Shown one piece after another: positions 6,387 to 62,942 of a stretch of DNA of 62,942 nucleotides (its first letter is position 1; the number at the start of each line of letters is the position of its first letter). Origin of the DNA: Minisyncoccota bacterium. Its GTDB lineage: Bacteria > Patescibacteriota > Minisyncoccia > Phycocordibacterales > Phycocordibacteraceae. The notes under the pieces are model-generated. The model searched no databases. It saw nothing but the letters and a program-made list of their open reading frames with translations, and had not been told where the DNA came from. Location of the stretch: contig JBAZRE010000004.1 in NCBI GenBank assembly GCA_041663025.1, positions 1 through 62,942 of the forward strand, written 5' to 3'. The position numbers were made by a program, and so were the translations under genes.

Positions 6387-7286
6387 CTACGCCCGCGCGC
6401 CTGATTGATCGAGAAGCTTCTGCACAGCCGCAGTCACGATCGGCAACATGTCATCATAGAAATTGAGGTCGATAATGTCCTTCAAGCGAAACCATTTTGC
6501 ATCATCGAGTCCACCACTCTTCTTGAGCGCGAGTGGCTCAAAGTCGCATGAGGCGAGATAGAAGCAAACATGCTTACGCACCTTCCCCTTCTCTGGATGC
6601 GAAGCAATATATTCATTCTCACCAATTCGGTGCTCCACTCTTGCATCAAGACCAAGCTCTTCTTTGATGATGCCTGCGACGCCAATCTCTGGCGTAGCGC
6701 CATCTGCAATGTGACCCTTTGAGAGCGTCCATCGGCCGAATACGTCATGCACGAGTGCGAGATAATATTGCCCGTCATGTTTGGCATACACAATGGCGCC
6801 GCCCATGTTCTCTATCGGTAATTCCTCGCGCCGTGTCTTTTTTTCTCCATGCTCATCTTTGCCTGGCTCGCCGAGTTCTTTATAAACTGCACCAAGAACA
6901 CCGTTCACAAAGCGGCCAGACGAGTCACCGCCGAATGTCTTGGCGAGTTCTATTGCCTCATTGATTGCCACCTTTGCCGGCACCTGGGTGCGATCGGCGA
7001 AGAGGAGCTCATAGAGCCCGAGACGTAGGATATTGCGATCGATCGGAGCAATACGCTCAAGTGACCATTCGGGTGCAGCCTTCTCGATGATCAAATCAAT
7101 ATCATTTTTCTTCGCGAGTGTGCCGAGGAGGAGACGTTCCATAAAAGGATGATCGACGTCGTCACCACCAAATTCGGCAACGTTGCGCGCGAGGATAGTG
7201 ACGGCATCTTTATCCAACGCGTGAGTGGTGTCCCACTCGAAGAGCGTCTGGAGAACGACTGAGCGCGCTAAGTGTCTATTCGCCAT
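6387..7286 (-). CDS. nusB: NusB antitermination factor fused to a C-terminal Nudix-fold domain
   Basis: N-terminal half is NusB-like (LRLGLYELLF...AINEAIELAK.FG...FVNGVLG). C-terminal half is Nudix-like (GGAIVY...WTLSKGH...IIKEELGL). Confidence 0.75.
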   Translation of the reverse strand: MANRHLARSVVLQTLFEWDTTHALDKDAVTILARNVAEFGGDDVDHPFMERLLLGTLAKKNDIDLIIEKAAPEWSLERIAPIDRNILRLGLYELLFADRTQVPAKVAINEAIELAKTFGGDSSGRFVNGVLGAVYKELGEPGKDEHGEKKTRREELPIENMGGAIVYAKHDGQYYLALVHDVFGRWTLSKGHIADGATPEIGVAGIIKEELGLDARVEHRIGENEYIASHPEKGKVRKHVCFYLASCDFEPLALKKSGGLDDAKWFRLKDIIDLNFYDDMLPIVTAAVQKLLDQSGARA

Positions 7287-7358
7287 GGAAAGATCTATAT
7301 CACTAGAGTAGCAAGAGGTTGCAGTTGTGCAACTCGCATATGTGCAAAAGCACGAGAG

Positions 7359-7423
7359 AGTCGCTTGTTGCAGCGACTGGCTGACTCATTCTGATGAGGC
7401 CCGAAGGAGCAAAAGAAGCGACT
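7359..7423 (-). repeat. Conserved 40-nt core (7373..7412) enclosed by a long imperfect stem, copy 1; possible structured RNA or complex terminator 3' of rpmF
   Basis: Core is 40/40 identical to 23050..23089. The flanking arms (extending to about 7345..7438) are mutually complementary but unrelated to the arms of copy 2. Confidence 0.6.
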
Positions 7424-7432
7424 TCCTCGTGC

Positions 7433-7786
7433 TTATACCCCGCCTCCGAATCCGCTACGCGCCTTGGGACGAGTTGCCGTTGCGACTTTACCAGAAATGC
7501 CTTTTGAACTTTTTGCGTCAGCATTCGCATGCTCTTCATGTGCGTGCTCATGCGCATTCTTCGCGGCCGGCTCAGTGTCTGGGCCCTTAACCTTTGGCCC
7601 CTTCGCAACCTTCACCTTCGGAGTGAAGATTTGCTTACCACGATACATGCCCGTCGCCTCATCGAGATGGTGCGGGAGGCGGAGATTGCCGCTTTCGGCA
7701 TCCTTAACAATATTGGTGTTTTTGAGCGCGTGGTGAGACCGACGATTGCGGGTGTGACCACTCGTATGGCGCATGCGAATTGACAT
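7433..7786 (-). CDS. rpmF: 50S ribosomal protein L32 with a long K/A/H-rich C-terminal extension
   Basis: [16 protein letters not shown]...[22 protein letters not shown] resembles bL32. 117 aa, against about 57 aa for a typical L32. Confidence 0.75.
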
Positions 7787-14408: not shown

Positions 14409-14429
14409 TATCAAGGTGAGACCTTGATA
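14409..14429. repeat. REP-like hairpin family B, copy 1 (TATCAAGG-TGAGA-CCTTGATA)
   Basis: Perfect 8-bp stem with a 5-nt loop. Identical copies at 14458..14478 and 15173..15193. Confidence 0.85.
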
Positions 14430-14457
14430 TTCACCACTACAGTAATTACCGAGGCAT

Positions 14458-14478
14458 TATCAAGGTGAGACCTTGATA
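14458..14478. repeat. REP-like hairpin family B, copy 2
   Basis: Identical 21-mer, 10 nt upstream of the RAYT-B start. Confidence 0.85.
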
Positions 14479-21926: not shown

Positions 21927-21999
21927 AGCCGCCTCCCCGATTCGGACGGGGGACCTTCGCTTTACAAAAGCGTTGCTCTACCAACTGAGCTAAGGCGGC
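21927..21999 (-). tRNA. tRNA-Thr (anticodon UGU), no encoded CCA
   Basis: Hand-folded cloverleaf GCCGCCT/TA/GCTC-AGTTGGTA-GAGC/A/ACGCT-TTTGTAA-AGCGA/AGGTC/CCCCG-TCCGAAT-CGGGG/AGGCGGC/T. One A:A mismatch in the anticodon stem; T-loop reads TCC rather than TTC. Confidence 0.8.
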
Positions 22000-22417: not shown

Positions 22418-22999
22418 TTAGCGAGCAGAGATGCGGACAAACGAGGTCATCTCGATACGCTCTCCGAACTTCTGCGTAGCTTCGTTCAAAAGATCGTGCA
22501 CGGTCTTTGTTTCATCCTTGATGAAAAATTGGTCAAGAAGTACCTGGTCGCGGAAGTAGCTCGCAATCTTCCCCTCCATAATCTTCGCCTGCATATCGGC
22601 TGGCTTGCCCTCTACTTCTTTCTGAAATACCGCTGTCGCTGCATCTCTCGCTTCGCTCGGGATCTCCGCATCCGTCCCATATTTGGGATCGGTCGCAGCG
22701 ACTTGCATCGCGAGCTCGCGCGCAAGCGCGACGAATTCTGGATTCTTCGCAACGAAGTCGGATTCGCATGAGAGGAGCACCATCGCGCCAATGCTCCCTT
22801 CATGCACATAGTTCCCTATGATGCCAGCCTTGAGTGTGCGCTCTGCTTTCTTCTCAGCAGCTTCGGCTGAACGCTTTTTGAGAATAACCTCGGCCTGGGC
22901 TAGATCTCCGCCGGCCTCTTCAAGCGCCTTTTTGCACTGCATGACAGACACACCTGTCGCCTCGCGTAATTGTTTAATGCTTTCAGTCGTGATTTCCAT
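22418..22999 (-). CDS. tsf: Elongation factor Ts (short form)
   Basis: MEITTESIKQLREATGVSVMQCKKALEEAGGDL (UBA-like N-terminus). Start taken at the internal ATG 22999 of ORF 22418..23023. Confidence 0.88.
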   Translation of the reverse strand: MEITTESIKQLREATGVSVMQCKKALEEAGGDLAQAEVILKKRSAEAAEKKAERTLKAGIIGNYVHEGSIGAMVLLSCESDFVAKNPEFVALARELAMQVAATDPKYGTDAEIPSEARDAATAVFQKEVEGKPADMQAKIMEGKIASYFRDQVLLDQFFIKDETKTVHDLLNEATQKFGERIEMTSFVRISAR

Positions 23000-23032
23000 A
23001 GTGGTGTAAAAATAATAGCACACAAAACGACG

Positions 23033-23103
23033 GGAATTCAGTTTTCTCTGCGACTGGCTGACTCATTCTGATGAGGCCCGAAGGAGCAAGAAAATTGAAT
23101 TCC
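23033..23103 (-). repeat. Conserved 40-nt core (23050..23089) enclosed by a 15-bp stem, copy 2; 3' of rpsB and 5' of tsf
   Basis: Core is identical to 7373..7412. Arms GGAATTCAGTTTTCT and AGAAAATTGAATTCC pair with one mismatch. Confidence 0.6.
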
Positions 23104-23109
23104 AGCCGT

Positions 23110-23808
23110 TTACGCAACCTGCCCTTTCTTAAATGCCCCAGTGAGCTCCGCGAGAATAAGCCGCACCGTCTCGCGAGATGCATCATTTGCAACAATCGGA
23201 TACGCCGCATCGGTCAGATCACAATCTGAGCTCATGATAGCGATAATTGGGATACCAGCGTCATTTGCCTCCTTGACCGCATGCTTCTCATGCTTCGTAT
23301 CAACGACAACGAGTGCATCCGGGCGCTTTGTGAGTGTGGTGAGGCCGTCGAGTCGTATCGTGAGCTTATCCTTCTCTCGCTCAAGCTTCACTACTTCTAG
23401 CTTCGTGTGCTGCTTCGCAAGCGTTCCTGCGGCCGACTTCTCAGTGAGCTCGGCAAGTCGATCAACGCGCTTCTTGATCTCGCTCCAGTTAGAGATGGTG
23501 CCACCGAGCCAGCGCGCTGCGACAAATGGTGCAGAAATCTCCTCTGCCGCCTTCTTCACCAACGCGGCAATCTCGACTTTCCCACCGACGAAAAGAATCG
23601 TCTTACCATCTTTCGCGAGTGTCTCAAGGGCAGCCTTTGCTGCCTCGAGCTGTCCGGTTGTCTGCACCAAATCAATAATCTCCTGTCGCCCTTTTGTCCC
23701 CACGAGAAAAGGCTTCATCGACGGGTGCCGGCGACTTTTCACCTGCGCGAAATGCGCCCCTGTGTCAAAGAGGCGCCTCAACTCTGCCGTGTCATTCACT
23801 GCTGCCAT
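23110..23808 (-). CDS. rpsB: 30S ribosomal protein S2
   Basis: LFDTGAHFAQ...RRHPSMKPF; 232 aa; canonical rpsB-tsf order. Confidence 0.9.
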   Translation of the reverse strand: MAAVNDTAELRRLFDTGAHFAQVKSRRHPSMKPFLVGTKGRQEIIDLVQTTGQLEAAKAALETLAKDGKTILFVGGKVEIAALVKKAAEEISAPFVAARWLGGTISNWSEIKKRVDRLAELTEKSAAGTLAKQHTKLEVVKLEREKDKLTIRLDGLTTLTKRPDALVVVDTKHEKHAVKEANDAGIPIIAIMSSDCDLTDAAYPIVANDASRETVRLILAELTGAFKKGQVA

Positions 23809-23951
23809 TATTTGGCTACTCTACCCTAAACTCCGCTTGGATGCAAGCGTCGTAAATCCGAAATCTCAAGCACGAAATACGAAATGAATTTAAATTTTTA
23901 AACTTTTGAATTTTGGTGCTTGTTTGTTATTTCGTGCTTCGAGCTTAGTGC

Positions 23952-33481: not shown

Positions 33482-34960
33482 ATGAGGAATATGTGGCTGC
33501 CGGTCGTGTCTGCCCTCGCGGGCATTGTCGTCTTCTTGCCGATGAATTTTTATCCGGCGGCTTTCGTCTTTCTCATTCCACTTTTTATCTTCTTCTTGCG
33601 AGAAGAGAAGCTGTGGCGACTGGTTGTTGGGGCTCTTTTATTCCGCTTGATCTTCTCCATGGGTACAGTTTATTTTACTCTTGAGCCAATCCTCTGGATT
33701 TCTTCTCTTCTCATTTTTTGCGGCCTGCCTCTCTCAATCTTCTTCTTCAAAAGACTCATCTTCAAATTTGCGGACACGGAGTGTCCGCAAATTCCTACCT
33801 CCTGCTCCTGCCTCCTGCTCGTTTCCTTGCCTTTCTTATGGACCTTCTTTGACCTCGCGCAAGCGCAGTATTCTCTTGCACCGATTTATATCGCCAGCGC
33901 CGGCAACGCACTCGGCTCTTCGCCATTTCTTGGGCTGGCAGCTCTCGGCGGGTTCGTCGTGCTCACTTTCTTCGTCGTGCTCATCAACTCACTTCTCGCA
34001 ATTCTTGTTCTGATCTGGCGGCGAAACCCCCAAGTTGCTTGGGGGTTTCGCCGCCAAGTGATTTATGTTCTGATTGCAATTATTGTTCTCCTTTTTGCTG
34101 GCTGGCAAATTGCAAGCTTCGAGCTGCGCCAGAATGCCATTGCTTATGCCGCCCTGCCGAACTCAATCAACATTGCCGCCATTTCTACCAATGGAACACT
34201 TGCTGTCGACCAGCTTGCACAACTCACACAAGAATTGGCCGGCCAGCAACTTGATCTCATCATCTTCCCCGAAGATATCCTCAACCAGCATGTAGGACGT
34301 CCGACGTCCTACATGCTGGGAAACAGCTCGACTGCTGTGTTTCAAGATCTTGCGAAAGAACTTAGCACAAATGTCCTCGCGAGCTACGACACGCTTCAAG
34401 GTACTACCAGCACATTAAAATATGGCTCGACAATCTTGTTTGACCAACAAGGAAGCATTGCCGGCATCCACAACAAAAACCGCCTCACATTCGCAGGCGA
34501 ATACTGGCCTTTCGGCAATTGGCACCCGTCTTTTTACGACTGGCTGAAGACACGGAATCCGAGCATTGGAACCTATGCAATCTTTGACCAGAAGAATGCA
34601 GACACTCCGGGCGAGCAGAATCTGCTCTCATTGGCGCTCGGAGAAAACACCGTGTCTTTTGCCGCACCCATCTGCTTGGAGATTCACTATCCGACTGATT
34701 TGGCAGCATACCGAACGCAAGGCGCGCGCTTCATAATCAACCCTTCAAGTAATCGCTGGATCGGCGGTGGTCTCTCGCATTTCTTATATCTCACAACCAA
34801 TGTAAAAAAAATAGAAAGTGTTGCTCTCCAACTGCCGATTATTTCAAGTGGCGTTGATGACTTCGCCGGCATTATTCTTCCGAATGGACAATCACAGATG
34901 CTTCCCTACCAAACAACTGGCAAAACCTACAACGTATTTTTCGGCACTGTCAGATATTAG
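33482..34960 (+). CDS. lnt: Apolipoprotein N-acyltransferase-like protein (polytopic N-terminus + CN-hydrolase domain)
   Basis: Multiple TM helices followed by IIFPEDIL (Glu), HNKNRLTFAGEYWPFG (Lys) and APICLEIHY (Cys), which resemble the Lnt E-K-C triad contexts. Confidence 0.65.
   Translation: MRNMWLPVVSALAGIVVFLPMNFYPAAFVFLIPLFIFFLREEKLWRLVVGALLFRLIFSMGTVYFTLEPILWISSLLIFCGLPLSIFFFKRLIFKFADTECPQIPTSCSCLLLVSLPFLWTFFDLAQAQYSLAPIYIASAGNALGSSPFLGLAALGGFVVLTFFVVLINSLLAILVLIWRRNPQVAWGFRRQVIYVLIAIIVLLFAGWQIASFELRQNAIAYAALPNSINIAAISTNGTLAVDQLAQLTQELAGQQLDLIIFPEDILNQHVGRPTSYMLGNSSTAVFQDLAKELSTNVLASYDTLQGTTSTLKYGSTILFDQQGSIAGIHNKNRLTFAGEYWPFGNWHPSFYDWLKTRNPSIGTYAIFDQKNADTPGEQNLLSLALGENTVSFAAPICLEIHYPTDLAAYRTQGARFIINPSSNRWIGGGLSHFLYLTTNVKKIESVALQLPIISSGVDDFAGIILPNGQSQMLPYQTTGKTYNVFFGTVRY
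34286..34318. repeat. Family C palindrome, 33-nt perfect copy inside the lnt-like gene (encodes HVGRPTSYM)
   Basis: CAGCATGTAGGACGTC-C-GACGTCCTACATGCTG, read in-frame. Confidence 0.88.
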
Positions 34961-38752: not shown

Positions 38753-38806
38753 GTATCAAAGTATAACCCTTTATACTTCATACTTTATACTTTATACTCT
38801 ATTCAT
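38753..38806. promoter_or_regulatory. Divergent fba / PfkB-kinase control region with a tandem TATAC(T) array
   Basis: CCCTTTATACTTCATACTTTATACTTTATACT at 38768..38798. TATACT lies 8 nt before the kinase ATG and, on the reverse strand, 7 nt before the fba ATG. Confidence 0.5.
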
Positions 38807-43204: not shown

Positions 43205-43264
43205 GGTAGTTAATTATACAATGTTCAATTTACAGTTTACAATCAATTCACAATGTTTCAAAAA

Positions 43265-43320
43265 CTGAAAATTATGTACTTGAAAATTCATTGTAAATTG
43301 AAAATTGATGTTTGAAAATT
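43265..43320. repeat. Array of four (C/T)TGAAAATT 9-mers spaced 14-18 nt
   Basis: Copies at 43265, 43280, 43298 and 43312. The last copy overlaps the rpiB stop codon. Confidence 0.75.
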
Positions 43321-52308: not shown

Positions 52309-55300
52309 TCATGTTGTAGCTGACGTGTCAGCAGGCACGACATCAGCTCCGACGCTTTCGGTCGGAGTCCCGACTTCTGACGTCGGGACAGGAGGCGGAG
52401 CCGCGGGAGCAGTGGGTTCGACAGTCTCACCGTGAATGACGGTGATGAGGCGCGAGGCGGTGCCGATATTCCCTGCCGCATCGGTCGCGGTGTAGGTGAG
52501 GGTGTAGAGTCCGGCGGTTGAAGTATCGACTGTGCCCGTCACGATCGGCATTATTGATCCATCTGTGTCATCAGCTGCAGTCGCGCCAGGATCGGTGAAG
52601 ACATCGCCAACGGTAATCTGCATCGCTGCATCTCCATTGAGCGTTACCACGGGCGATACCGTATCCGGATTTAAGGTTTGATCCAGCTGTAGCGGGATCG
52701 AACCTTGGTTATCGGAATCAGTCTGACTTCCACCCGCGCCCGAATCCGAAGCGCCAACAATGACCGAGCGCATCGCAGTCGAGCTATTCCCTGCCGCATC
52801 CTTCGCTTCATAGGTGATGAGATAGGTCGTCGGGCTAGCAGTGTCTATCGTCGCTGTAGAAACCTCTTGTTGCACACCATTTATATAGGTAGTGACCGAA
52901 GGATTATTGTCGATATCATCGACAACTGTCACACCTGGATCGGTGAACGTATCACCGACCGAGAGGCGCACCGGATTGTCACCGAGCAGAGTAATCACTG
53001 GCGGCGTCGTATCTCTTTCATTGGAAATTGAAAATTGTGAATTGGAAATTTCTGGCGGCGTGCTCGTCGCCACCTGACCCTCGGTCTGGACGAGGAAGTA
53101 GTCGAAGGAGACGTCGCTCTCTTGTGGCGCAGAGAGCACGAGCTTGAAAGATCCCTCCTTCTTGTCGCTGATGAACCACGAGCCCGTGGTTGAGGCGGTC
53201 AACGTCACGAATATCTTGGTTGTCGGCTTCACGTAGGCGTTCTCAACCTGCGCGACGGTGTTGCCGGCGAGAATGTTGACTGTACCAGCAGAGCTGCTGC
53301 CCTCAGAATTGGTCGCGGCGACGAATCGGTCGGCAATCAGCGTGCCAAACTGCGCGATGCCATTGCTTATGAACACTCCGAATGCGTTAAACGCGCTTGC
53401 GAGTGTTGAAGTGGAGAAGGTAACTGGTGAGTCGCTCGCTGTTGAGACTTCACCATTCTCGAGCGCGGAGACGCGCGCCTCAAGCGAGGTGAGGCGCATC
53501 TCGTGTGCATCAACCTTCGCCGCGAGATCATACACACCAGAGAGCGTGTAGGTCGCGAGCTTGTAGATATCAACGCCATTGCCGTCGGCCGTCAGAACAT
53601 CTGGAGATGTAGTGGAAGCAAAACCTCCAAGTAGACTTGAGATGTCACCTCTGACTGGCACAATAAATTCGTTTGCACTAACCGCACCGCTCACGTTGAA
53701 AGCATCCAGACTTAATTTATCAATCGATTGTTTGACCATCGCCTGCACTTGATCTTCAATCTTCATATTGGCGACGCGGTCTGCGACCATGCTCTCAACC
53801 TGTTCAACCACCAAGCTCTTGTTGCGACGAGAAATCAACACATTAATTTTGCCTTCGCCCTCTGCCAATGGCTCGAGCGCGACGCCCACAGTCGGATCGC
53901 CCGGATCAGCGCGCATCACGTATCCCGGCGTTGAAGATGCCGCGGTGAGCGAGTCGCCGGATATGATTGGCCCATTCTCCGCGCTCACGAACGCCGGAAT
54001 CTGACCGAGCATAGCGATGAGCTTGTAGTTCGGATTATTTTTATATTCCTCCTTCGCGTTCCCGATGAAGCCCGGCTTTGTGGAGACGATGCCCATCAGA
54101 TTATTATCCGCAGCACGATCGCAACGCTTCACCGCATTCTTCTGGCTCGTGTCAACACAGACTGCCTCGCCAGATTTCAAATCGATGTCGTCAGTGTAGA
54201 AATATTCGGCGTAGTCAGCGCTGCCGGACTGCAAGGCGACCGGGCTGTAGATACTGCCGTCAGCGCGCACATCGCCGTAGCCGGTAACACGGAAGATGGC
54301 GCCGGACGTCGTGGTGGAAATAACGAATGCATCAGAATTATCGGTTACGCTACTCACCACCGACAATCTGGCATATGGGCTGGTGGTGCCGATGCCCACA
54401 TTACCCAAAGAATCAATGACCATCGCCTGATCGCCGCCGCCGATAGTGGTGGTGGCGTTCGTTACCGATGGCGCGATGGTCAACCCGCCCAAGCTGTTAA
54501 CGGTAAAGTTCGCATAATTGGTGGTGTCATATGCCAACGTCAGCTGGGCGCCGACGCTTGAGGCGATAGAGAGTCGCGACATCGGCGAGCTCGTGCCGAC
54601 GCCGACATAGCCGCTGCTTAAAATCGTAATGTCTTCGCCCGATGTTCCATTCCCCATGCTAAATCTGCCGCTATGTTCCCATATTCTAAAGTCCGCATCT
54701 TCACCGCTTGCATCGTTAAAGTCTATAAGTCCGCCAGAACTGCCATAGAGCTGCATGCCCGCATAACTTGAGATTATCCCCAAGAAAGCTCCTTGAGCAG
54801 TCGGCATATTGCCAGTCCCAAGATCTCCAACTACATGGAGAGGTGAGAGTGGATCTGCCGTCCCGATGCCGACGTTCCCGCTTGTTTGTTGAACCACAAA
54901 TTTATTCGTTCCGATGGTCAAACCATTAGCAAAGGTTGATGTCGCCGTACCAGAACTCAAGCCGAGAGATCCGTCGGTAGAAGAGATTCCTGTGCCCGTG
55001 AGATACAGCGAGCCAGTACCGACCTTCAAAGTACCCATGACGTGCAGATTGTTCTCAATGGTTGAGGTCCCTGTCCCGCCCACATAGAGTCTGCCCGATG
55101 TGGAGAGAGATTCGGCAGGCGAGGTGGTGCCAATTCCGACGTTTCCATTCGCCAACACGGTCATAAAGGTTGAAGTGGCCGTACCGTTGGTGGTTGAGGC
55201 AATCGTGAAGAGCGGCGTGTTGGCGGCGGTGGTTCTGGAGTTTGAAATGGAGAGAAGAGAACCAGGGGTCGTAGAGCCCAAACCAATTCGGCCGGTGGCG

Positions 55301-58300
55301 AAGTCACCGTAGATGAGTGGAGTGGTGGAGGAGTTGGCAAGATAGAACTTGTTAGAGCCGGTCTCGAAGTAGCCAGCCTCATTGCCAATGAAGACGTTGC
55401 CAGAACCAAGAGCGCTAAAACCGGCCGACATGCCCAAGGCAACATTATAGCTACCGGTCTGGTTATTAAATAAACTACCCGCGCCAAAAGCGGTATTTAC
55501 TTGACCGGTAGTGTTATTCGGCAAAGCGAGAAATCCAAAAGCAGAATTATTTTCCCCGGTGGTATTTAAGTTAAGTGCATTACCGCCGAAAGCGCTGTTG
55601 TAGGAGCCGATTGTATTGGACAGAAGGGCATCACTTCCAAACGCATTGTTATAACTACCTGTTGTGTTTGATCCGAGAGCACCAGCTGTATCACCTGTAC
55701 CAAAAGCGTTGTTATAGCTACCCGTGCTATTAGAGCCTAGACTGGAGCCACCAAAAGCGCTGTTGTAGGAGCCGACGGTATTAACTCCCAAAGACATCAT
55801 ACCAAAGGCGCTATTGGCATTACCATTGGAATATTCCAAAGCCATTCCGCCGAAAGCACTATTTGAAGAGCCAGTTGTATTCGATTCAAATGCGCCTGCA
55901 CCAACCGCGGTATTGAACAGACCAGCAACTGTACCTCCATCCGGCATATTGCTCATGCCGGCGTTAGCACCGATAAATATATTGGTGTTCCAACCCAACG
56001 TGTCAGCGCCCGAGCTCCTCATTTCAAAACCAGTAGTGCCATCAGAATTTAAGAGAGTGAAGACAGGACTGGTTTGGGTAAGTTTCTTAACTGAAATAGC
56101 GTCAATGTATCCGTCGAAGTCTGTACTTGGGGTAAATATAAGATTGTCGGTGGTTTGGGCGGTAACAACCTCATACACATATCCTCCATCGACAATAGAA
56201 TAAGAATTCTGGCAATCAGTTCCGCCAAGAGAGCAGGTAACTGTACCCGTGCCGTTGAGTGTCTCTATGTAGAATGTAATCACATACGTCTCTCCGGCGA
56301 CTGCAGAAACATCCTGTTCTAGAGTCGCGATATTGCCCGGCGTATGCACCTCCCAATCATTGACTCCATCATATGACCAGCCGGCGCCAACGGTCCAGCC
56401 GGTATCGTTGGTGTTAAAACTGCCGTTAGTAACTTTTTCTGTGCCAAGTGTGGCTTCGGTGTTGGTGCCTTGGATAGATAGCTTAGCGGCTGGTGCAGAT
56501 GTGCCAATCCCTATATTCCCATTCGCCAAGACGGTCATGAAGGTTGAGGTTGCCGTTCCGTCGGTTGTAGAAGCAATGGTAAAGAGCGGCGTGTTGGCGG
56601 CAGTGGTTCGTGAGTTAGAAATGGAGAGAAGTGAGTACGGAGACGTTGTGCCAATTCCGACGAGACCGAGATTCACCATGTTGAGACCACCAGCATCGTT
56701 GCCCGCGCCGAGAGTTGAGGCGAGAGTATCGATGACATTTCCGCCAGCGCCTCCACCAACGCACGTTCCATTGATTGAGAAGCAACCACCATTCATGAGA
56801 TCAATACCCTTCGCATAGGAGGTGGTGGTGGCGTTGTCGAAGAAGTTCCAGCCGGTGCCGGTGCCGCCGATAGAGAGAAGTGAGCCTGGAGAGGTGGTGC
56901 CGATACCTACATTCCCGCCGTTCGTAACGATGAAGTTCGTTGCAGTTGATGACCCGACCACAAATTGCGGCGTGCCAGCGCCAAGGGCGTTCCCATTGAT
57001 TGAGAGCAAACCCCAAGGCGAGGTGGTGCCGAATCCGGCAAGGCCGTTATCTTGAAGCTTGAACAATGTCGTTGACGCGCTGTTCGCGAATTCAACCGTG
57101 GTGCTACTTGTCGAGCTCCGACCGAAGACGTTGAACATTGCGGTTGGCGGCGTTGAAGATCCGATGGTGACACCGTTTGAATAGGTGGAGCTCGCTCCGT
57201 CAGACAATCCATAGACCATTATCATGGGGTTGCCGCCGAGGTATGCGGTGTAGGATTGCGGGACACCCGCCACGACTGTATCGATAGGTACATCAGTCCA
57301 CTGAACCATACCTGCATTCGTGTCAAATGATTGCGTGCCGGAGATCAGGCTGCTGATTGATGTCTCGCCAGTCGAGAAGTCGCTGACGAATGCACCGCCG
57401 TTCACACTCAAGCCGCCTGCGAAAGTCGAGGTAGCGGTGGCGTTATCAGCATTGAAGTTCGCTCCGGCGATGAGGCCGCTGACTGAGAGGAGCGCATACG
57501 GCGAGGTGGTGCTGACACCGAGATAGCCGTTTGGATCAATCGTGAGCGCCGACATTGAGGAGGTGGCGAAAGTTAGCGGGCTGGAAGTAGCTATATAAAG
57601 GTATCCTCCGGCATTGCGGAATGTCCATTTGTTTGACGAGAGCGATGAATCGCCGAGCGCGAATTGCGGAGCCGTTGAGGTTGAAAGTTGGAATAGCCAT
57701 TGTGGAGTGGTTGTGCCGATGCCAAGATACGTGCCCGTGTCGTAGATCAGAGAATTATTGAAGGTACTGCCTCCCCATTTTGGCAGATAATTGGTAGTGA
57801 GAGATGAAACCGTGGTGGAGCCGAGAAGACCGAGAGATGAAGTGGCGGTGAGTGTGTATCCGCTGGAAGCGTTGCCGAGGAGGAGTTGACCGTAGGATGG
57901 CAGAGATGTTAATCCAGTGCCGCCATACATCACGCCGATGGAGGTGGTGGCTTGCCAAGTTCCGTTGGCAACGCTGATTGGGCCGTTCAAAGCAGATGAG
58001 TTAAGACCCGTGCCTCCATAGACATTGCTGATGGCAGTGCCATTCCAGATTCCCTCTTTCACCGTGCCAGTTGTGTCAATGCGGAATGCGTTGCCGGCAG
58101 TGCCGACTGAGAAGAGTGAGAATGGTGATGTGGTGCCGACACCGAGATTACCATTGATAGCCAAGCCGCCCTGATACAGATTGTTTGGCGGAGTGATATT
58201 CGAATCTGCTTTGCCAGAGGTCATTACCGCTGAAGCGGTATTAGCGACGGCGACAAATGTGCCATTGCCGTAGGCGACTCCCTGCCATGTATCGGCAGGA

Positions 58301-61300
58301 GAGGTTCGGAGTTTCCAAGTTGCGCCATCGGGAGAAGTCATGACGAAGTTATCAGAACTGACCGCGACATATAAACCGTTACCGTAGGTAACTGAATTCC
58401 AGACATTGCTCGTAGCACCTGCGTGACCCGTCCACGCTGTGCCATTGGGCGAGGTCATGACAACATTTGCCCCGCCGTCAGTCGAGACTGCGACGAAGAG
58501 GCCGTTGCCGTAGGTGACAGACTTCCACCAACCAGACGCGCCGAGACCAGCTTGTGGTGTCCATGTCACTCCGTCAGGTGAAGTCATAACTCTGTTATCA
58601 CCAGAGAGAGCGACGGCGACGAAGAGGCCGTTGCCGTAGGTGATGCCCTGCCAGCTGTTGTCCTCGGCACTTGCTTGGAGTGCCCATGTGATGCCGTCGG
58701 GAGAAGTCATCACATGATTGGCTCCGCCGTCACTCGAGACCGCGACGAATGTTCCGTTGCCATATGTGACAGACTTCCAATTGTTCGCGGCGGCTGCAGT
58801 TCTGCTGGTCCAGGTGGCGCCGTTTGGCGAAGTCATGACGAAGCCGTCAGTAGAGACTGCGACGAAGAGACCGTTACCGTAGGTGACTGAGCCCCATATC
58901 TTATCTGCGGCGCTTGTTCTCGTGGTCCAATTGATGCCGTCGGGCGAAGTCATGACTCCTGTGCTAACGCCAGACGTAGATGAGGCAACAGCGACGAAGA
59001 GGCCGTTGCCGTATGTGATGCCCAACCACTTGTTGCTCACCGAAGCAGTTCGCGCCGTCCACGATGTTCCCTTTGAAATGATGTTGCCAACGACCTCTAA
59101 CTTCTCTCCCGGGGTCGCCGTGCCGATGCCGACCGTGCCATCATTTTTCACGATGAATTGCGTTGTCGTTGCAAATGATGCAACGCTCGAGAGCTGGAAG
59201 AGCGGCGCACTGCCATCATTCACACCAGCGACATCGAGAATCGCCAGAGGAGAAGTTGTGCCGATGCCGAGATTCGTGCCGACGTTGTTGTAGAGATTTG
59301 AGCCAGAAGAAGTCCAATAGTTCGTACCTTCAATCCCGGTGAGTGTCGAGCCATCAAATGACAATCCAGTACCGACGACGAGTGACTTGATGAACGATGA
59401 GCCGTTACCGACGAGGATGCCGCCGAGTGGTGTGCTTGATGCAGTACCACCCGAGCTGATGCCAAGCGCAGAAGCTAATGTGACAGCACCGTTGGAGCTA
59501 ATGGCGAGTGCTGGGATGGTGCTGGTGGCATAGGCATCAGAGCTCGTACCTATATATAGGTTCCCGCCCATCGAGGAGAAGAGCCAGTGCTTGAGGTTGG
59601 CTCCTGCACCCGAGTCGGACAAAGCAATTTGAGCCTTACCTCTTGAGGCGACTTGGAGATTCCATGCTGGGGTGGTGGTGCCTATACCGACATTACCGCC
59701 TCTTTGGAGATACATGACATTACCACCGTTAGCTGACAACCCAAGATTACTGCCCGTGCCATCATCATATCTATATAGACCAGTATTGTTTCCACTATGA
59801 AATGATATCCCAGGTGCTGACGCAGTTCCGTCTCCAAAATATGCGACTCCACCATTTACATCCAACTTCGCCCCGGGATTCGCCGTCCCAATCCCCACAT
59901 ACCCATTCGCGAGGACGGTCATGAAGGTTGAGGTCGCAGTGCCATCGGTTGTTGAAGCGATAGTGAAGAGCGGCGTGTTGGCGGCGGTTGTTCTGGAGTT
60001 GGAGATGGAGAGGAGTGAGTATGGTGAAGTAGTGCCGATGCCGACGTTGCTCGCGCTTGAGATAAAGAGCGTTGAAGTGCCGATGGCGGTGTTCGCGCTG
60101 CTGAAATATGCAATCTGGCCAAGGGAGCCAGAGAGAGTGGCGGATCCGCCTCCGCCAAAAGTTGAAGTTGCCACATAGTCATAACCAGTGCCGGCGGCGT
60201 TGCCTACCAGCACTTGCCCGTACGCCGGCAGAGCGGAAACGCCGGTACCACCTGAGCTGATGCCAAGCGCAGAAGCCAGAGTGAGTGCACCATTGCTGTT
60301 GATGGAAAGTGCCGGGATGGTTGAAGTGGCATATGAATCAGAAGATGTGCTGATGTAGAAGTTGCCGCCCATGGATGAGAAGAGCCAGTGCTTGAGGTTT
60401 GCTCCGGCGGACATATCCGAGAGGGCGAACTGCGTTTTGGTACTTGAGGCGATTTGGAGATTCCATTGCGGCGTCGTGGTGCCGATGCCTATGACGCCGG
60501 AGGGATTGGAAACAAGCGCGGTTGAAGTCGCCGGAAGCGTACCGAAGATGATACCGCCAATGTTTAACTGGTTGTTACCAGTGGCGTTTGGGAAGAAAGT
60601 GTTGTAGCCAATTCCAATATTATTGCCTCCACTGGTGAGGTTGCTTACAGTGTCTACATTTGCTCCCAAGAGAATGTTGCCAAATCCTGTACTTACCTCA
60701 CGACCTGCTTGGTAACCTATTAACGTATTGTAGTCAGAGCTGTTTCCGGACTTTAGACCTGCGCCGAGACCGATATATACACCTCCTTGAGTCGTAATGG
60801 GACCGCTCCACGCTCCTCCAGCAGTATTCCCGATTGCCACCCCGTTAGTCATATTGTTGTAGTTGGCAGCTGTAGCACCGATCGCTACACTGTTTGAACC
60901 TGTAGTATTTGTTAACAATGCAGAAGAACCAATCGCCGTATTTGAAGTGCCAGAAGTATTCGCTGTAAGGGCATTCGCTCCAATTGCTGTATTACCGATA
61001 CCAGTATTCGCTGTAAGCGCCTTATACCCAATAGCGGTTAAAGACAAATTCGGACCTGGGCTTGTAGTAGCGGTATTCCCGGCAGAAAAACCAAAAATGG
61101 TGGAGGAATTTGTTGTCGACGCATAGCCAAGCAAAAGGCCGTCTTGGCGGTAACCAGAGTATTGATTAACGTTGATGAACCCTGCTACGTCGAGTTTATA
61201 ATCGGGCGCCGACGTCCCAATCCCGAGATTTCCAGTTGATGAGATGAAGATTGTTGAGGTTGCTTGCGCGACACCAGCATCATTGCCGACCAAGAAGTTC

Positions 61301-62942
61301 CCTTTTGCGAGTTGGTTGGTTTGAGGCGTATAGCCGAAGAGTGAAGATGATGCGATTGCATAGGTTGTGCCATTGTTGGCGGCAACGAGACCGGTGAAGG
61401 AGGCGAGGACTGGAGCGGTGGTGAAGGTCTGTGTTTGTGACCAGGTGTTTGGTGTTGTGGTGCCGAAGGCGAGGGAGACCGCGTGAGATGCGCCAGCTGA
61501 TACTATGACCGGATATGTGCCACTAATGGTGACAATACCAGTGTTAGTGACTGTGAAATTCGGATATGTGCCGGTCACGTTGATGCCGGCGCCATTTGCA
61601 AGAGCGACAGTTTGATCAGGCGCGGTGTTGGTGATGGTGAGACCAGAACCAACCACAGCACCGGTGCCACTGATAGAAATGCCGGTGCCATTTGAGACGG
61701 TTGACGTGCCAACATTGGCAAACGTATTCGCACCAGAGAAGTATGGGATGTTGCCGATGACTGCATCGGTTGATGTGGAGAGGCCGTTGAATCCAACAGT
61801 TGCACCTGAGAGTGTGATGGGCCAAGCGGTTGAAATGGTGGCTTGTTTTGCATTCCACGTTGCTGCTGATGCGATGCGATCATCTGCGAGTGTTCCGATC
61901 CAGTATGGTGTGAAGAGATGTTCGGTGCCATTTGAGACGATGGTCATGCCGAGGTTGGTGTCGGCAGTTGATGTTGCGAGTGTTTGAGTGGAGCCGGTGA
62001 GGCCGGTGTGGAAGTTGTCTCCGAGGGTTTGGATGGCGGCGGAGAGTGGTGTATAGCCGAAGAGTGAAGATGATGCGATTGCATAGGTTGTGCCATTGTT
62101 GGCAGCAACGAGACCGGTGAAGGAGGCGAGGACTGGTGCGGTGGTGAAGGTCTGTGTTTGTGACCAGGTGTTTGGTGTGGTGGTGCCGAATGCGAGGGAG
62201 AAGGTTGTCGCAGGACCGATGAGAGAACCGGCACCGGAGATCTGAAGAGGATAAGTGCTGATGGGAGCAGAGGTTGCAACATTGGCGAAGGTATTAGCAC
62301 CAGAGAAGTATGGGATGTTGCCGATGACGGCATCTGTTGATGTTGAGAGACCGCCGAATGATAAAGATGATCCGGAAATGGAAAGGGGGAATGATGTGGT
62401 GAGGTTTTGGATCGAAGAAGAAGCGACCCATGCTGGCACCCCATCACTCATAGCGAGAATGTATCCATTCGTTCCTGCATTGATGGAACCGAGTGTGTTA
62501 GTGCCGCTGAAATATGGGAGTGCGTTTGCTGCACCTGTATACAGAGAAGAAGTGGCGATTGAGAGTGTAGGAGATGAACCGAGTGTGGACCAGATGCCGC
62601 CCGTTGAAAGGCCAAGACCAAAGGTTGGCGTGGAGGTCGCGACGCCATAGACACCTGAGGTGCCATTTGATACGAGAAGATTGCTTGAAGAAGGTTGGCT
62701 AGTGGTGGCAAGACCGGTCCATGTGAGAGAACCGCCGGTGCCGATATAGGTGAAGGAACCGGAGAACGGTGCTGATAATGAGAGTGAAGATGTGGCAACA
62801 TTGGCGAAGGTATTAGCACCAGAGAAGTATGGGATGTTGCCGATGACTGCATCGGTTGATGTGGAGAGGCCGTTGAATCCAACAGTTGCACCTGAGAGTG
62901 TGATGGGCCAAGCGGTTGAAATGGTGGCTTGTTTTGCATTCC
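52309..62942 (-). CDS. Giant modular surface protein (>3,540 aa), 5'-partial
   Basis: ORF 52309..62451; by hand translation the same frame has no stop from 62452 to the window end. Modules: GN(V/I)GIGT tail-fibre-like repeats; YadA-head-like NSAFG repeats (about 55400..55930 and 60600..61060); WxxVTYGNGxFVAV repeats (about 58200..59060); CBM-like module (about 56080..56450); ADYAEYF segment (about 54200); two Ig-like C-terminal domains (about 52440..53010). Confidence 0.85.
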   Translation of the reverse strand, partial: NAKQATISTAWPITLSGATVGFNGLSTSTDAVIGNIPYFSGANTFANVATSSLSLSAPFSGSFTYIGTGGSLTWTGLATTSQPSSSNLLVSNGTSGVYGVATSTPTFGLGLSTGGIWSTLGSSPTLSIATSSLYTGAANALPYFSGTNTLGSINAGTNGYILAMSDGVPAWVASSSIQNLTTSFPLSISGSSLSFGGLSTSTDAVIGNIPYFSGANTFANVATSAPISTYPLQISGAGSLIGPATTFSLAFGTTTPNTWSQTQTFTTAPVLASFTGLVAANNGTTYAIASSSLFGYTPLSAAIQTLGDNFHTGLTGSTQTLATSTADTNLGMTIVSNGTEHLFTPYWIGTLADDRIASAATWNAKQATISTAWPITLSGATVGFNGLSTSTDAVIGNIPYFSGANTFANVGTSTVSNGTGISISGTGAVVGSGLTITNTAPDQTVALANGAGINVTGTYPNFTVTNTGIVTISGTYPVIVSAGASHAVSLAFGTTTPNTWSQTQTFTTAPVLASFTGLVAANNGTTYAIASSSLFGYTPQTNQLAKGNFLVGNDAGVAQATSTIFISSTGNLGIGTSAPDYKLDVAGFINVNQYSGYRQDGLLLGYASTTNSSTIFGFSAGNTATTSPGPNLSLTAIGYKALTANTGIGNTAIGANALTANTSGTSNTAIGSSALLTNTTGSNSVAIGATAANYNNMTNGVAIGNTAGGAWSGPITTQGGVYIGLGAGLKSGNSSDYNTLIGYQAGREVSTGFGNILLGANVDTVSNLTSGGNNIGIGYNTFFPNATGNNQLNIGGIIFGTLPATSTALVSNPSGVIGIGTTTPQWNLQIASSTKTQFALSDMSAGANLKHWLFSSMGGNFYISTSSDSYATSTIPALSINSNGALTLASALGISSGGTGVSALPAYGQVLVGNAAGTGYDYVATSTFGGGGSATLSGSLGQIAYFSSANTAIGTSTLFISSASNVGIGTTSPYSLLSISNSRTTAANTPLFTIASTTDGTATSTFMTVLANGYVGIGTANPGAKLDVNGGVAYFGDGTASAPGISFHSGNNTGLYRYDDGTGSNLGLSANGGNVMYLQRGGNVGIGTTTPAWNLQVASRGKAQIALSDSGAGANLKHWLFSSMGGNLYIGTSSDAYATSTIPALAISSNGAVTLASALGISSGGTASSTPLGGILVGNGSSFIKSLVVGTGLSFDGSTLTGIEGTNYWTSSGSNLYNNVGTNLGIGTTSPLAILDVAGVNDGSAPLFQLSSVASFATTTQFIVKNDGTVGIGTATPGEKLEVVGNIISKGTSWTARTASVSNKWLGITYGNGLFVAVASSTSGVSTGVMTSPDGINWTTRTSAADKIWGSVTYGNGLFVAVSTDGFVMTSPNGATWTSRTAAAANNWKSVTYGNGTFVAVSSDGGANHVMTSPDGITWALQASAEDNSWQGITYGNGLFVAVALSGDNRVMTSPDGVTWTPQAGLGASGWWKSVTYGNGLFVAVSTDGGANVVMTSPNGTAWTGHAGATSNVWNSVTYGNGLYVAVSSDNFVMTSPDGATWKLRTSPADTWQGVAYGNGTFVAVANTASAVMTSGKADSNITPPNNLYQGGLAINGNLGVGTTSPFSLFSVGTAGNAFRIDTTGTVKEGIWNGTAISNVYGGTGLNSSALNGPISVANGTWQATTSIGVMYGGTGLTSLPSYGQLLLGNASSGYTLTATSSLGLLGSTTVSSLTTNYLPKWGGSTFNNSLIYDTGTYLGIGTTTPQWLFQLSTSTAPQFALGDSSLSSNKWTFRNAGGYLYIATSSPLTFATSSMSALTIDPNGYLGVSTTSPYALLSVSGLIAGANFNADNATATSTFAGGLSVNGGAFVSDFSTGETSISSLISGTQSFDTNAGMVQWTDVPIDTVVAGVPQSYTAYLGGNPMIMVYGLSDGASSTYSNGVTIGSSTPPTAMFNVFGRSSTSSTTVEFANSASTTLFKLQDNGLAGFGTTSPWGLLSINGNALGAGTPQFVVGSSTATNFIVTNGGNVGIGTTSPGSLLSIGGTGTGWNFFDNATTTSYAKGIDLMNGGCFSINGTCVGGGAGGNVIDTLASTLGAGNDAGGLNMVNLGLVGIGTTSPYSLLSISNSRTTAANTPLFTIASTTDGTATSTFMTVLANGNIGIGTSAPAAKLSIQGTNTEATLGTEKVTNGSFNTNDTGWTVGAGWSYDGVNDWEVHTPGNIATLEQDVSAVAGETYVITFYIETLNGTGTVTCSLGGTDCQNSYSIVDGGYVYEVVTAQTTDNLIFTPSTDFDGYIDAISVKKLTQTSPVFTLLNSDGTTGFEMRSSGADTLGWNTNIFIGANAGMSNMPDGGTVAGLFNTAVGAGAFESNTTGSSNSAFGGMALEYSNGNANSAFGMMSLGVNTVGSYNSAFGGSSLGSNSTGSYNNAFGTGDTAGALGSNTTGSYNNAFGSDALLSNTIGSYNSAFGGNALNLNTTGENNSAFGFLALPNNTTGQVNTAFGAGSLFNNQTGSYNVALGMSAGFSALGSGNVFIGNEAGYFETGSNKFYLANSSTTPLIYGDFATGRIGLGSTTPGSLLSISNSRTTAANTPLFTIASTTNGTATSTFMTVLANGNVGIGTTSPAESLSTSGRLYVGGTGTSTIENNLHVMGTLKVGTGSLYLTGTGISSTDGSLGLSSGTATSTFANGLTIGTNKFVVQQTSGNVGIGTADPLSPLHVVGDLGTGNMPTAQGAFLGIISSYAGMQLYGSSGGLIDFNDASGEDADFRIWEHSGRFSMGNGTSGEDITILSSGYVGVGTSSPMSRLSIASSVGAQLTLAYDTTNYANFTVNSLGGLTIAPSVTNATTTIGGGDQAMVIDSLGNVGIGTTSPYARLSVVSSVTDNSDAFVISTTTSGAIFRVTGYGDVRADGSIYSPVALQSGSADYAEYFYTDDIDLKSGEAVCVDTSQKNAVKRCDRAADNNLMGIVSTKPGFIGNAKEEYKNNPNYKLIAMLGQIPAFVSAENGPIISGDSLTAASSTPGYVMRADPGDPTVGVALEPLAEGEGKINVLISRRNKSLVVEQVESMVADRVANMKIEDQVQAMVKQSIDKLSLDAFNVSGAVSANEFIVPVRGDISSLLGGFASTTSPDVLTADGNGVDIYKLATYTLSGVYDLAAKVDAHEMRLTSLEARVSALENGEVSTASDSPVTFSTSTLASAFNAFGVFISNGIAQFGTLIADRFVAATNSEGSSSAGTVNILAGNTVAQVENAYVKPTTKIFVTLTASTTGSWFISDKKEGSFKLVLSAPQESDVSFDYFLVQTEGQVATSTPPEISNSQFSISNERDTTPPVITLLGDNPVRLSVGDTFTDPGVTVVDDIDNNPSVTTYINGVQQEVSTATIDTASPTTYLITYEAKDAAGNSSTAMRSVIVGASDSGAGGSQTDSDNQGSIPLQLDQTLNPDTVSPVVTLNGDAAMQITVGDVFTDPGATAADDTDGSIMPIVTGTVDTSTAGLYTLTYTATDAAGNIGTASRLITVIHGETVEPTAPAAPPPVPTSEVGTPTESVGADVVPADTSATT
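55144..55275. repeat. Intragenic near-identical repeat (LLSISNSRTTAANTPLFTIASTT.GTATSTFMTVLANGN), copy 3 (approximate bounds)
   Basis: Same peptide and very similar DNA at about 56516..56650 and 59903..60035. Confidence 0.7.
56516..56650. repeat. Intragenic near-identical repeat, copy 2 (approximate bounds)
   Basis: See 55144..55275. Confidence 0.7.
59903..60035. repeat. Intragenic near-identical repeat, copy 1 (approximate bounds)
   Basis: See 55144..55275. Confidence 0.7.
61328..61478. repeat. Approx. 150-nt intragenic repeat (AFGTTTPNTWSQTQTFTTAPVLASFTGLVAANNGTTYAIASSSLFGYTP), paired with 62050..62200
   Basis: Only a handful of mismatches by eye. Confidence 0.75.
62797..62942. repeat. 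Approx. 145-nt intragenic repeat, paired with 61711..61856 (a related shorter copy at about 62270..62350)
   Basis: The last approx. 125 nt are identical by eye. Explains the duplicated off-frame ORFs 61575..61931 and 62448..62939. Confidence 0.75.

Follow-up and report, generated by a model that had tools for sequence, protein, structure and literature searches.

A candidate family of palindromic insertion elements with conserved centres and locus-specific arms in Kaiserbacteria/Paceibacterota

The contig JBAZRE010000004.1 of a Minisyncoccota bacterium (assembly GCA_041663025.1), analysed over its positions 1 to 62,942 and hereafter called the window, carries two long hairpins with the same core, one between the ribosomal protein gene rpsB and tsf and the other between an rpmF-like (L32) gene and nusB. 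The reading that we favour, with modest confidence, is that both loci are copies of a family of palindromic insertion elements of about 83-94 nt, similar to the RPEs (Rickettsia palindromic elements) and MITEs (short for miniature inverted-repeat transposable elements) and specific to the Kaiserbacteria/Paceibacterota of the Candidate Phyla Radiation (CPR). It does not serve as a regulator of ribosomal-protein operons in particular. Related species differ in whether a given site holds the complete hairpin or none of it; both orientations are found, and the places that it occupies are 'safe' ones, i.e. stop-to-start spacers, divergent spacers and variable surface loops or tails of proteins. Its design, with a conserved centre and variable arms, is unusual for this class of elements.

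The hairpin and its conserved centre

The core, GCGACTGGCTGACTCATTCTGATGAGGCCCGAAGGAGCAA, is found at positions 7373-7412 (copy 1) and 23050-23089 (copy 2). The 40/40 identity between the two, pointed out in an earlier note made from the sequence of the window, was confirmed, and a 40-nt match between the two loci was reached by 0/100 shuffles. No third copy of the core was found in the window, either with sub-patterns allowing 3 mismatches or with the covariance model described below. The full hairpin measures exactly 87 nt in both cases. An inverted-repeat scan gave arms of 23 nt and 87% complementarity for copy 2 (Table 1) and of 22 nt and 86% complementarity for copy 1 (7348-7369 and 7413-7434), the pairing of the copy 2 arms consisting of 20 Watson-Crick pairs, one G·T, one A·C and one other mismatch. 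Compared with shuffled sequences, the folds reached z values of -3.8 to -5.2 for both copies, on either strand and as RNA or DNA. In both copies, the outer arm shares 2 nt with the upstream stop codon (rpsB, or L32 at 7433-7435) and, on the coding strand, UUUU follows the hairpin.

Twenty-eight non-redundant genuine copies were collected from one scan of the GTDB species genomes and one of the JGI metagenomes, the inner hairpin being left unspecified. All of them belong to Kaiserbacteria, Paceibacterota or Minisyncoccia (metagenome-assembled genomes, MAGs, or metagenomes), and the same scans also returned chance matches in the coding DNA of unrelated phyla. The element has no coding capacity of its own and consists of an outer stem of 15-26 bp and an asymmetric conserved centre of about 45-50 nt (CGACTGGCTGA, a small hairpin and GCCCGAAGGAGC). 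The hairpin length is nearly constant, from 83 to 94 nt across copies, so the hairpin seems to act as a unit. Next to the core, TTTTCT/AGAAAA is semi-conserved (6-7 bp) across loci and is common to most copies. As for the closing arms described in the earlier note, they are real but longer (22-23 nt) than the 15 bp given there; they are locus-specific, as stated, but not wholly different, given the shared TTTTCT/AGAAAA and the fact that arms at orthologous sites are diverged homologues. The T-rich tract said to follow both copies is present in the window, but it is not kept in the orthologous copies L005, L010 and L015.

Two types of core were distinguished: the insert is 14 nt long in type A, where it forms a 5-bp hairpin with a UCYN loop, and 15 nt long in type B (CCAAGTCNNCGCRGG), and the flanks CGACTGGCTGAC and GGCCCGAAGGAG are common to both. 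The junction-proximal CGACTGG...GRGGAGC is kept even in type B and in shortened derivatives. With a covariance model built from 21 type-A copies, whose alignment has 28 invariant columns, all copies score between 38 and 92 bits. In the inner hairpin, compensatory double substitutions were seen at three of the five pairs, 99% of the cells are paired and there is no G·U pair, a level of covariation matched by 0/500 shuffles. The earlier note had allowed for there being neither further copies nor covariation; both were found.

Concerning the solid outer helices, the copies taken together gave 533 Watson-Crick pairs, 18 G·T, 15 A·C, 17 other mismatches and 6 gaps; after re-orientation to the transcribed strand, where this is known, our own tally was about 12 G·U vs. 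about 19 A·C. In an RNA helix under selection, G·U is tolerated and A·C is not. Since G·U and A·C are about equally frequent in the outer stems and the inner hairpin is free of wobble pairs, the result is what pairing of DNA predicts, and the statistics of the stem and inner hairpin point to pairing at the DNA level. Template-switch correction of quasipalindromes, which is maintenance at the DNA level, would predict the same statistics. The idea that the locus-specific stem amounts to a compensatory change is descriptively correct, but pairing of DNA accounts for the pattern better than pairing of RNA. On the plus strand of the core (23066-23088 and equivalents), possible tandem G·A/A·G pairs (CGAC/GGAG) stand beside the outer stem together with a C-GAA-G mini-hairpin, at whose position the minus strand reads C(UUCG)G. 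Both the C-GAA-G and tandem G·A motifs, as DNA, and C(UUCG)G, as RNA, are unusually stable, and these motifs thus leave the relevant strand undecided.

The centre is conserved well beyond its surroundings. Between copies in the rpsB-tsf spacer, EF-Ts is 73-83% identical, four-fold degenerate sites are 33-58% identical and the arms 26-59%, vs. 85-100% for the 52-nt central block (52/52 between the window and L015). Central positions not fixed by the search pattern are also conserved. Such matches at orthologous sites are not expected under neutrality and, together with the retention of the unfixed positions, they imply constraint or turnover on the centre in the lineages that retain it. In the full-text literature, no description was found of this motif or of palindromic in-frame elements in CPR/Patescibacteria.

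Sites, orientation and presence among relatives

The copies occupy at least eight kinds of site, between genes as well as in frame inside genes. The rpsB-tsf spacer holds eight copies plus a chimeric one, the L32-nusB spacer two, and the spacer between divergent aldolase and PfkB-type kinase genes four, while another tandem spacer is occupied at locus L077. In-frame copies lie inside tsaD, inside a class-V aminotransferase gene, whose Pfam match is split by the insert, and in the N-terminal R/G/S-rich tail of the DEAD-box helicase that follows rplU. As with RPEs, insertion is thus in frame, in unrelated genes and at tolerant regions (the TsaD loop, the aminotransferase and the helicase tail). 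At least four combinations of frame and orientation are used in translating the core (SFGPHRNASASR, APSGLVRTSQPVAS, RLADQ..AGPEG and RLADSFRGGPKER), so that it is the nucleotides and not the protein that are conserved. The reading frame is open across species despite the 1-base difference between types A and B and the variable length of arms and core, which indicates that the coding copies are translated, not removed.

Both orientations relative to transcription occur, the minus strand being the sense strand in five of the six kinds of transcribed site and the plus strand in tsaD and at L098. At the L21-helicase site of L098 (about 2059-2094, core orientation), the centre and its linkers are inverted vs. 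seven orthologues, with the frame open, and the hairpin variant CTCCTTCCGAGGAG avoids the in-frame TGA that the common variant would create; in L098, either the stretch between the arms would have been inverted or the element would have inserted independently. MQ[VI]GRWNHQS, with which the helicase begins, is kept across about 120 orthologues. In L025 (core at 1412-1447), where the gene order is rpsB, element, aldolase, the copy is chimeric, with one arm of the aldolase site, the other of the rpsB site and a broken outer stem. Copies may have recombined here, giving a duplication junction or a circle, or the assembly may be chimeric across the exact repeat of about 50 nt.

At the aldolase/kinase site, the element fills the gap between two outward-facing TGnTAnnAT boxes, read from the sequence and each a few bases from an ATG; boxes of this kind are not called by the -35/-10 consensus scan. 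Copies at this site are probably not transcribed from the flanking promoters. Genes beside the element (L001, L012, L014 and L064; helicase loci L002, L050, L095 and L098) often start 6-12 nt after a TGnTAnnAT-type box and lack a Shine-Dalgarno sequence, which suggests leaderless or near-leaderless mRNAs.

In related species, the same sites are empty or hold a small hairpin or unrelated hairpins. For the rpsB-tsf spacer, six relatives were chosen by their Tsf orthologues (76-84% identity), without regard to the motif. In these six, the spacer measures 1, 33, 43 (here containing a 6-bp hairpin), 80, 125 and 141 nt, and the covariance model found no copy of the element in any of them. The three longest contain hairpins with 20-bp stems and different centres (L106, 3142-3221; L104, 9876-10000; L105, 9860-10000), for which the model detected no homology to the core. 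By eye, the L104 and L105 centres have short fragments in common with it (TTGCTC..GGCCTC; GCTCC..GGGCC..AAGTC), and these two hairpins may be decayed relatives of the element. The aldolase/kinase spacer is empty in the genome of the window, where tandem TATACTT-like repeats take the place of the element (38753-38806), as well as in L107.

Among 120 helicase orthologues, eight have the canonical core peptide and about 15 a consistent variant, SFGSHRNAPASR, in whose DNA the inner hairpin is degraded and the arms are perfect (20/20). Most of the 120, including close relatives of carriers, have no element. At the rpsB-tsf and helicase sites, the entire stretch of about 83-88 nt is extra relative to empty sites.

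In TsaD, the PGGP-PRPM loop ranges from a 20-aa baseline to a maximum of 51 aa among 120 orthologues (P0001-P0120) at 69-78% identity: about 25 loops are minimal, six carry the element, several carry shortened derivatives and many have other inserts, whose flanks translate like palindrome arms. The filled P0002 has 48 nt more than the matching empty P0057; the empty site, itself a weak hairpin, has native codons to which both arms of P0002 can be aligned. In P0040, the strong stem is kept, the centre is 12 nt shorter and only CGACTGG...GAGGGAGCC is left. This loop is a hotspot of hairpin-like in-frame inserts (GFVNP..GFTKP, TSDVL..MSKF, SNLNASSQGSTLEF, RLPDLGLG and DQTAGFGSGN), and in P0014 it holds two adjacent near-perfect palindromes. 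On a neighbour-joining tree of RpsB plus Tsf, the occupancy states are interleaved. The tree is weakly supported (only the window plus L005 reaches 96%) and, being too poorly resolved, was dropped as a count of gains and losses.

The gene context given in the earlier note, rpsB/tsf and rpmF/nusB, was borne out by Pfam, all four genes being on the minus strand (Table 1). Boxes of the TGnTAnnAT kind are found at the same place as TGCTATTAT in L103, L104, L105 and L107. The -35/-10 consensus scan did not call the TGCTATTAT box, and a consensus terminator scan called neither window copy.

Table 1. Positions in the window of the two copies, their parts, the flanking genes and an unoccupied site
Feature	Position	Strand	Location or pairing	Basis or remark
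Copy 2, whole 87-nt hairpin	23025..23111		rpsB-tsf spacer	inverted repeat; covariance model 89.7 bits; fold z -4.5 to -5.2
Copy 2 outer arm, tsf side, AAACGACGGGAATTCAGTTTTCT	23025..23047		pairs with 23089-23111	
Copy 2 conserved asymmetric centre	23048..23088			linker, CGACTGGCTGA, inner hairpin, GCCCGAAGGAGC
Copy 2 inner hairpin, 5 bp + 4-nt loop (CTCAT TCTG ATGAG)	23062..23075			covariation
Copy 2 outer arm, rpsB side	23089..23111			2-nt overlap with rpsB stop codon 23110-23112
Copy 1, whole 87-nt hairpin	7348..7434		L32-nusB spacer	inverted repeat; covariance model 83.1 bits
Copy 1 conserved centre	7370..7412			contains the 40-nt core 7373-7412
rpsB (ribosomal protein S2)	23110..23808	-	upstream of copy 2	Pfam PF00318, E = 2.9e-60
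tsf (EF-Ts)	22418..22999	-	downstream of copy 2	Pfam PF00889
rpmF-like gene (L32p + C-terminal extension)	7433..7786	-	upstream of copy 1	Pfam PF01783
nusB-NUDIX fusion (NusB + C-terminal NUDIX hydrolase domain)	6387..7286	-	downstream of copy 1	Pfam PF01029, PF00293
Extended -10-like box TGCTATTAT	23012..23020	-	12 nt upstream of tsf ATG, just outside the element	read from sequence
Unoccupied aldolase/sugar-kinase divergent spacer, this genome	38753..38806			compared with occupied L001, L012, L014, L064

Other palindromes are also present in the window. An Lnt-like gene (33482-34960, plus strand) contains two perfect in-frame palindromes, at 34016-34056 (19-bp arms, 3-nt loop) and 34285-34319 (17-bp arms, 1-nt loop), which encode WRRNPQVAWGFRRQ and QHVGRPTSYMLG; such perfect in-frame palindromes elsewhere in the same genome indicate that palindromes are tolerated there. 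The peptide RPTSY recurs in hairpin-like TsaD inserts of other species. The spacer between the release-factor gene and rpsB (23868-23939) holds a hairpin with 17-nt arms, AAGCACGAAATACGAAA and TTTGTTATTTCGTGCTT, whose centre of 38 nt is AT-rich and bears no relation to the core; as this hairpin differs from that of the rpsB-tsf spacer, consecutive spacers of the operon each hold a different hairpin. Further long inverted repeats lie at 43225-43308 and 14409-14478, one being an AT-rich 29-nt pair and one a pair of 21-nt self-palindromic TATCAAGGTGAGACCTTGATA units.

Mobile element, host signal or operon RNA

If the hairpins are the palindromic insertion elements that we favour, they would have entered as DNA, by a route leaving no target-site duplication, and single-strand/hairpin-based or template-switch/recombinational copying would fit better than a cut-and-paste DDE transposase. 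Whatever preserves the complementarity of the stem would act on DNA, be it the correction of quasipalindromes or selection on a DNA hairpin, and the centre would be conserved because a sequence-specific trans-acting factor reads it on the folded single strand, candidates being the element's own mobilisation machinery or a host factor. Any effect on the rpsB-tsf and rpmF operons would be incidental and lineage-specific, although the hairpin and U4 after the rpsB and rpmF stop codons may well cause some transcription pausing or termination, or protect the 3' end of the upstream message. Of the traits of MITEs, small size and presence/absence polymorphism between related genomes were observed, but no more than 1-2 copies per MAG were detected with the strict pattern in incomplete genomes. 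The fallback of the earlier note, a small element that inserts, survives in spirit, in view of the patchy presence and the in-frame insertions. That note would have seen a simple MITE in copies scattered irrespective of gene context with conserved terminal repeats. The copies are indeed scattered regardless of context, but they have no conserved terminal repeats or target-site duplications and it is their centre, not their ends, that is conserved, so the element is not a simple MITE.

Several observations weigh against this reading. No target-site duplications were found, the best flanking direct repeat averaging 2.4 nt vs. 2.1 nt at random; comparison of the arms across loci gave no terminal repeats conserved between copies; and no transposase or partner protein was identified for the element. 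Only 1-2 copies were detected per MAG (with a strict pattern and incomplete genomes), unlike active MITEs or RPEs. The exact core is absent from viral contigs, two relaxed matches there being due to chance, and a phage vector was rejected on this ground. With 85-100% identity vs. 33-58% at four-fold sites, the core is too conserved for an inert relic, so that an ongoing constraint, a host function or turnover must be at work. At orthologous sites, the copies have the same orientation (rpsB 8/8, helicase 7/8) and their arms look like diverged homologues, which favours long vertical inheritance over recent movement. Lastly, the DNA search patterns fixed 19-21 core bases, by which the uniformity of the family is overstated: variant and decayed cores emerge when sampling is by protein (TsaD and helicase orthologues).

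Several of these points would suit a domesticated element, in which the centre, on a DNA or RNA hairpin, binds a lineage-specific host factor acting for instance in replication, repair or chromosome organisation, and whose copies are individually dispensable, hence the patchy occupancy. The strong retention of core nucleotides vs. saturated neutral sites at vertically inherited orthologous positions, the conserved orientation at each site, the low and stable copy number and the persistence of CGACTGG...GRGGAGC even in type-B and shortened derivatives all speak for it, as does the decay of cores while arms persist in some lineages, as after the loss of a partner. Against this, no candidate for such a factor emerged; a host signal would hardly be expected within the coding part of essential genes; in sister lineages, the same sites are taken by hairpins of other kinds; and many close relatives lack the element entirely. 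Nor did the positions follow any apparent logic, the GC-skew flip of the window being due to a giant gene only. We regard this explanation as possible but doubtful.

A still more tentative proposal, which we consider unlikely, is that of an undescribed design of mobile or domesticated DNA. Here, the asymmetric centre of about 50 nt, at the tip of a single-stranded DNA hairpin, would be the recognised and selected part, and the stem would drift, its complementarity being maintained by DNA-level correction. A lineage-specific, strand-specific enzyme (e.g. an HUH-type nuclease or a recombinase) would read, move or invert the centre and hold it nearly invariant across genomes with saturated silent sites.

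Among the roles named in the earlier note was a structured RNA (a processing or stability element, an attenuator or a protein-binding site). In the corresponding rival reading, the hairpins would be cis-acting RNAs of ribosomal-protein operons that work from the minus, i.e. coding, strand as terminators, attenuators or RNase III processing sites, by stabilising the mRNA or by binding a protein. In its favour, both window copies begin at the stop codon of a ribosomal protein gene and have U4 behind them on the coding strand; at five of six kinds of transcribed site, the sense strand is the minus one, which has the C(UUCG)G motif; and the folds are highly stable. However, most kinds of site are outside ribosomal-protein operons, with in-frame copies in tsaD, the aminotransferase and the helicase and copies between divergent gene starts; in tsaD and L098, it is the plus strand that is sense; and the sense strand is not enriched in wobble pairs. 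Moreover, the U-tract is not kept in orthologous copies, the terminator scan was negative, close relatives have rpsB-tsf spacers of 1-43 nt without such a hairpin, and no Rfam family matched. The proposal thus fails on context, on the occurrence of both orientations, on the lack of G·U enrichment and on the absence of the element from the rpsB-tsf spacer of close relatives, and it is now very improbable. As for the Rfam scan suggested at the time, Rfam 15 at gathering thresholds gave for the window only a tRNA at 21927-21999, and permissive scans of both loci only spurious microRNA-hairpin matches, driven by the long stem.

Alternatively, the hairpins could have arisen in place by template-switch (quasipalindrome) mutation, the shared centre being spread by gene conversion only and nothing being mobile. 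The many perfect or near-perfect small-loop palindromes of the window and its relatives, some of them inside genes, would fit, and so would the DNA-like mismatch statistics and the tsaD case, in which the arms of the filled site align to native codons of an empty, weakly hairpinned one. At the rpsB-tsf and helicase sites, however, the whole of about 83-88 nt is extra; the total length is constant and the inner TTTTCT/AGAAAA arms are common to different loci; and an identical centre of about 50 nt at eight unrelated kinds of site still requires a copying mechanism. This origin appears very improbable.

A small self-cleaving ribozyme, suggested by the hammerhead-like CUGAUGAG followed by a GAAA-like sequence beside the closing stem on the plus strand of the window copies, or another known RNA family, is next to impossible: CUGAUGA varies, being replaced by CCGAUGCG, CUGACGAG or CCGGUGGG in homologues and missing altogether from type B, hammerhead, twister, pistol, hatchet and other Rfam models gave no match even at E <= 10, and known ribozyme classes are already refuted for the element. 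The hammerhead in particular was rejected, CUGAUGAG being one arm and the loop of the small covarying hairpin, which reads CCGATGCG, CTGACGAG or CCGGTGGG in homologues.

Other candidates were also discarded. That the core might hold a small open reading frame (ORF) or a start site was rejected, since neither AAGGAG with a start codon nor the ATG of the hairpin is conserved. Resemblances of the core to signal recognition particle RNA, boxA and anti-Shine-Dalgarno sequences were considered and dropped, no tool supporting them. An origin-proximal or parS-like role was set aside, since the GC-skew minimum near 52 kb is due to one gene and not to an origin: a single 3380-aa ORF with Ig-like surface domains (52309-62451, minus strand) has an atypical GC skew that mimics an origin-like switch. 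The supposed rRNA adjacency of 'ORF-free' stretches of 1.2-1.6 kb was an artefact of ORF picking, and no rRNA was found.

The analysis removes a tempting false lead, as there is no new regulatory RNA of the rpsB-tsf and rpmF operons. It also documents 'selfish DNA in protein-coding genes', of the RPE kind, for the Candidate Phyla Radiation, where the searchable literature has no description of it, and indicates that reduced CPR genomes tolerate long palindromes inside essential genes. The ultra-conserved centre and the co-evolving arms with DNA-type mismatches raise the question of what reads the centre, and make the element a natural system for the study of palindrome maintenance. At a practical level, exact repeats of about 50 nt can give chimeric joins in metagenomes and spurious 'insertions' in CPR protein alignments.

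Comparison with known palindromic repeats

The RPEs are likewise small palindromic non-coding repeats of a reduced-genome lineage, found between genes and in frame in tolerant regions of unrelated housekeeping genes, and present or absent between related species. They measure about 100-150 bp and form about ten families, with tens of copies per genome, each family having a conserved encoded peptide (PMC10969869). Here, in contrast, the element measures about 87 nt, with 1-2 copies detected per genome; its core is read in either orientation and in several frames, so that no peptide is conserved, and it has a conserved centre with locus-specific arms. The likeness rests on described features; the host phylum is unrelated and common descent is not expected.

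With MITEs such as the Correia/nemis, ERIC and SPRITE elements, the hairpins share their short size, non-autonomous nature, hairpin formation and mostly intergenic location, frequently right behind genes or ahead of promoters. Inversion is possible in Correia elements, whose transcripts are cut by RNase III (PMC10969869); one inverted copy (L098) is a point of likeness here. MITEs, however, are defined by conserved terminal inverted repeats and target-site duplications, neither of which was found in the present copies, whose number is also far lower.

As for the REP (repetitive extragenic palindromic) sequences and REPINs, which are mobilised by RAYT (HUH) transposases, they have conserved arms and a variable loop, are strictly extragenic, reach hundreds of copies and need no classical target-site duplication. 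The element resembles them in being a hairpin that probably acts as single-stranded DNA and needs no classical target-site duplication; its design, with the centre conserved and the arms variable, is the reverse of theirs, and some of its copies are intragenic. No RAYT was found, no search aimed at one having been made.

For nematomorph mitochondrial genes, long in-frame inverted repeats have been described in which both pairing and coding are preserved (PMC6649704). The likeness lies in the long in-frame inverted repeats within functional protein genes; the nematomorph palindromes are perfect repeats of native coding sequence, with no shared centre, and do not form a dispersed family.

Finally, the window hairpins look like intrinsic terminators in standing directly after a stop codon and before UUUU on the coding strand. 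They differ from them by a 'loop' of about 41 nt, by AT-containing stems of 20 bp and by a U-tract that is not kept in orthologues, and the element is found in coding regions and between divergent gene starts as well.

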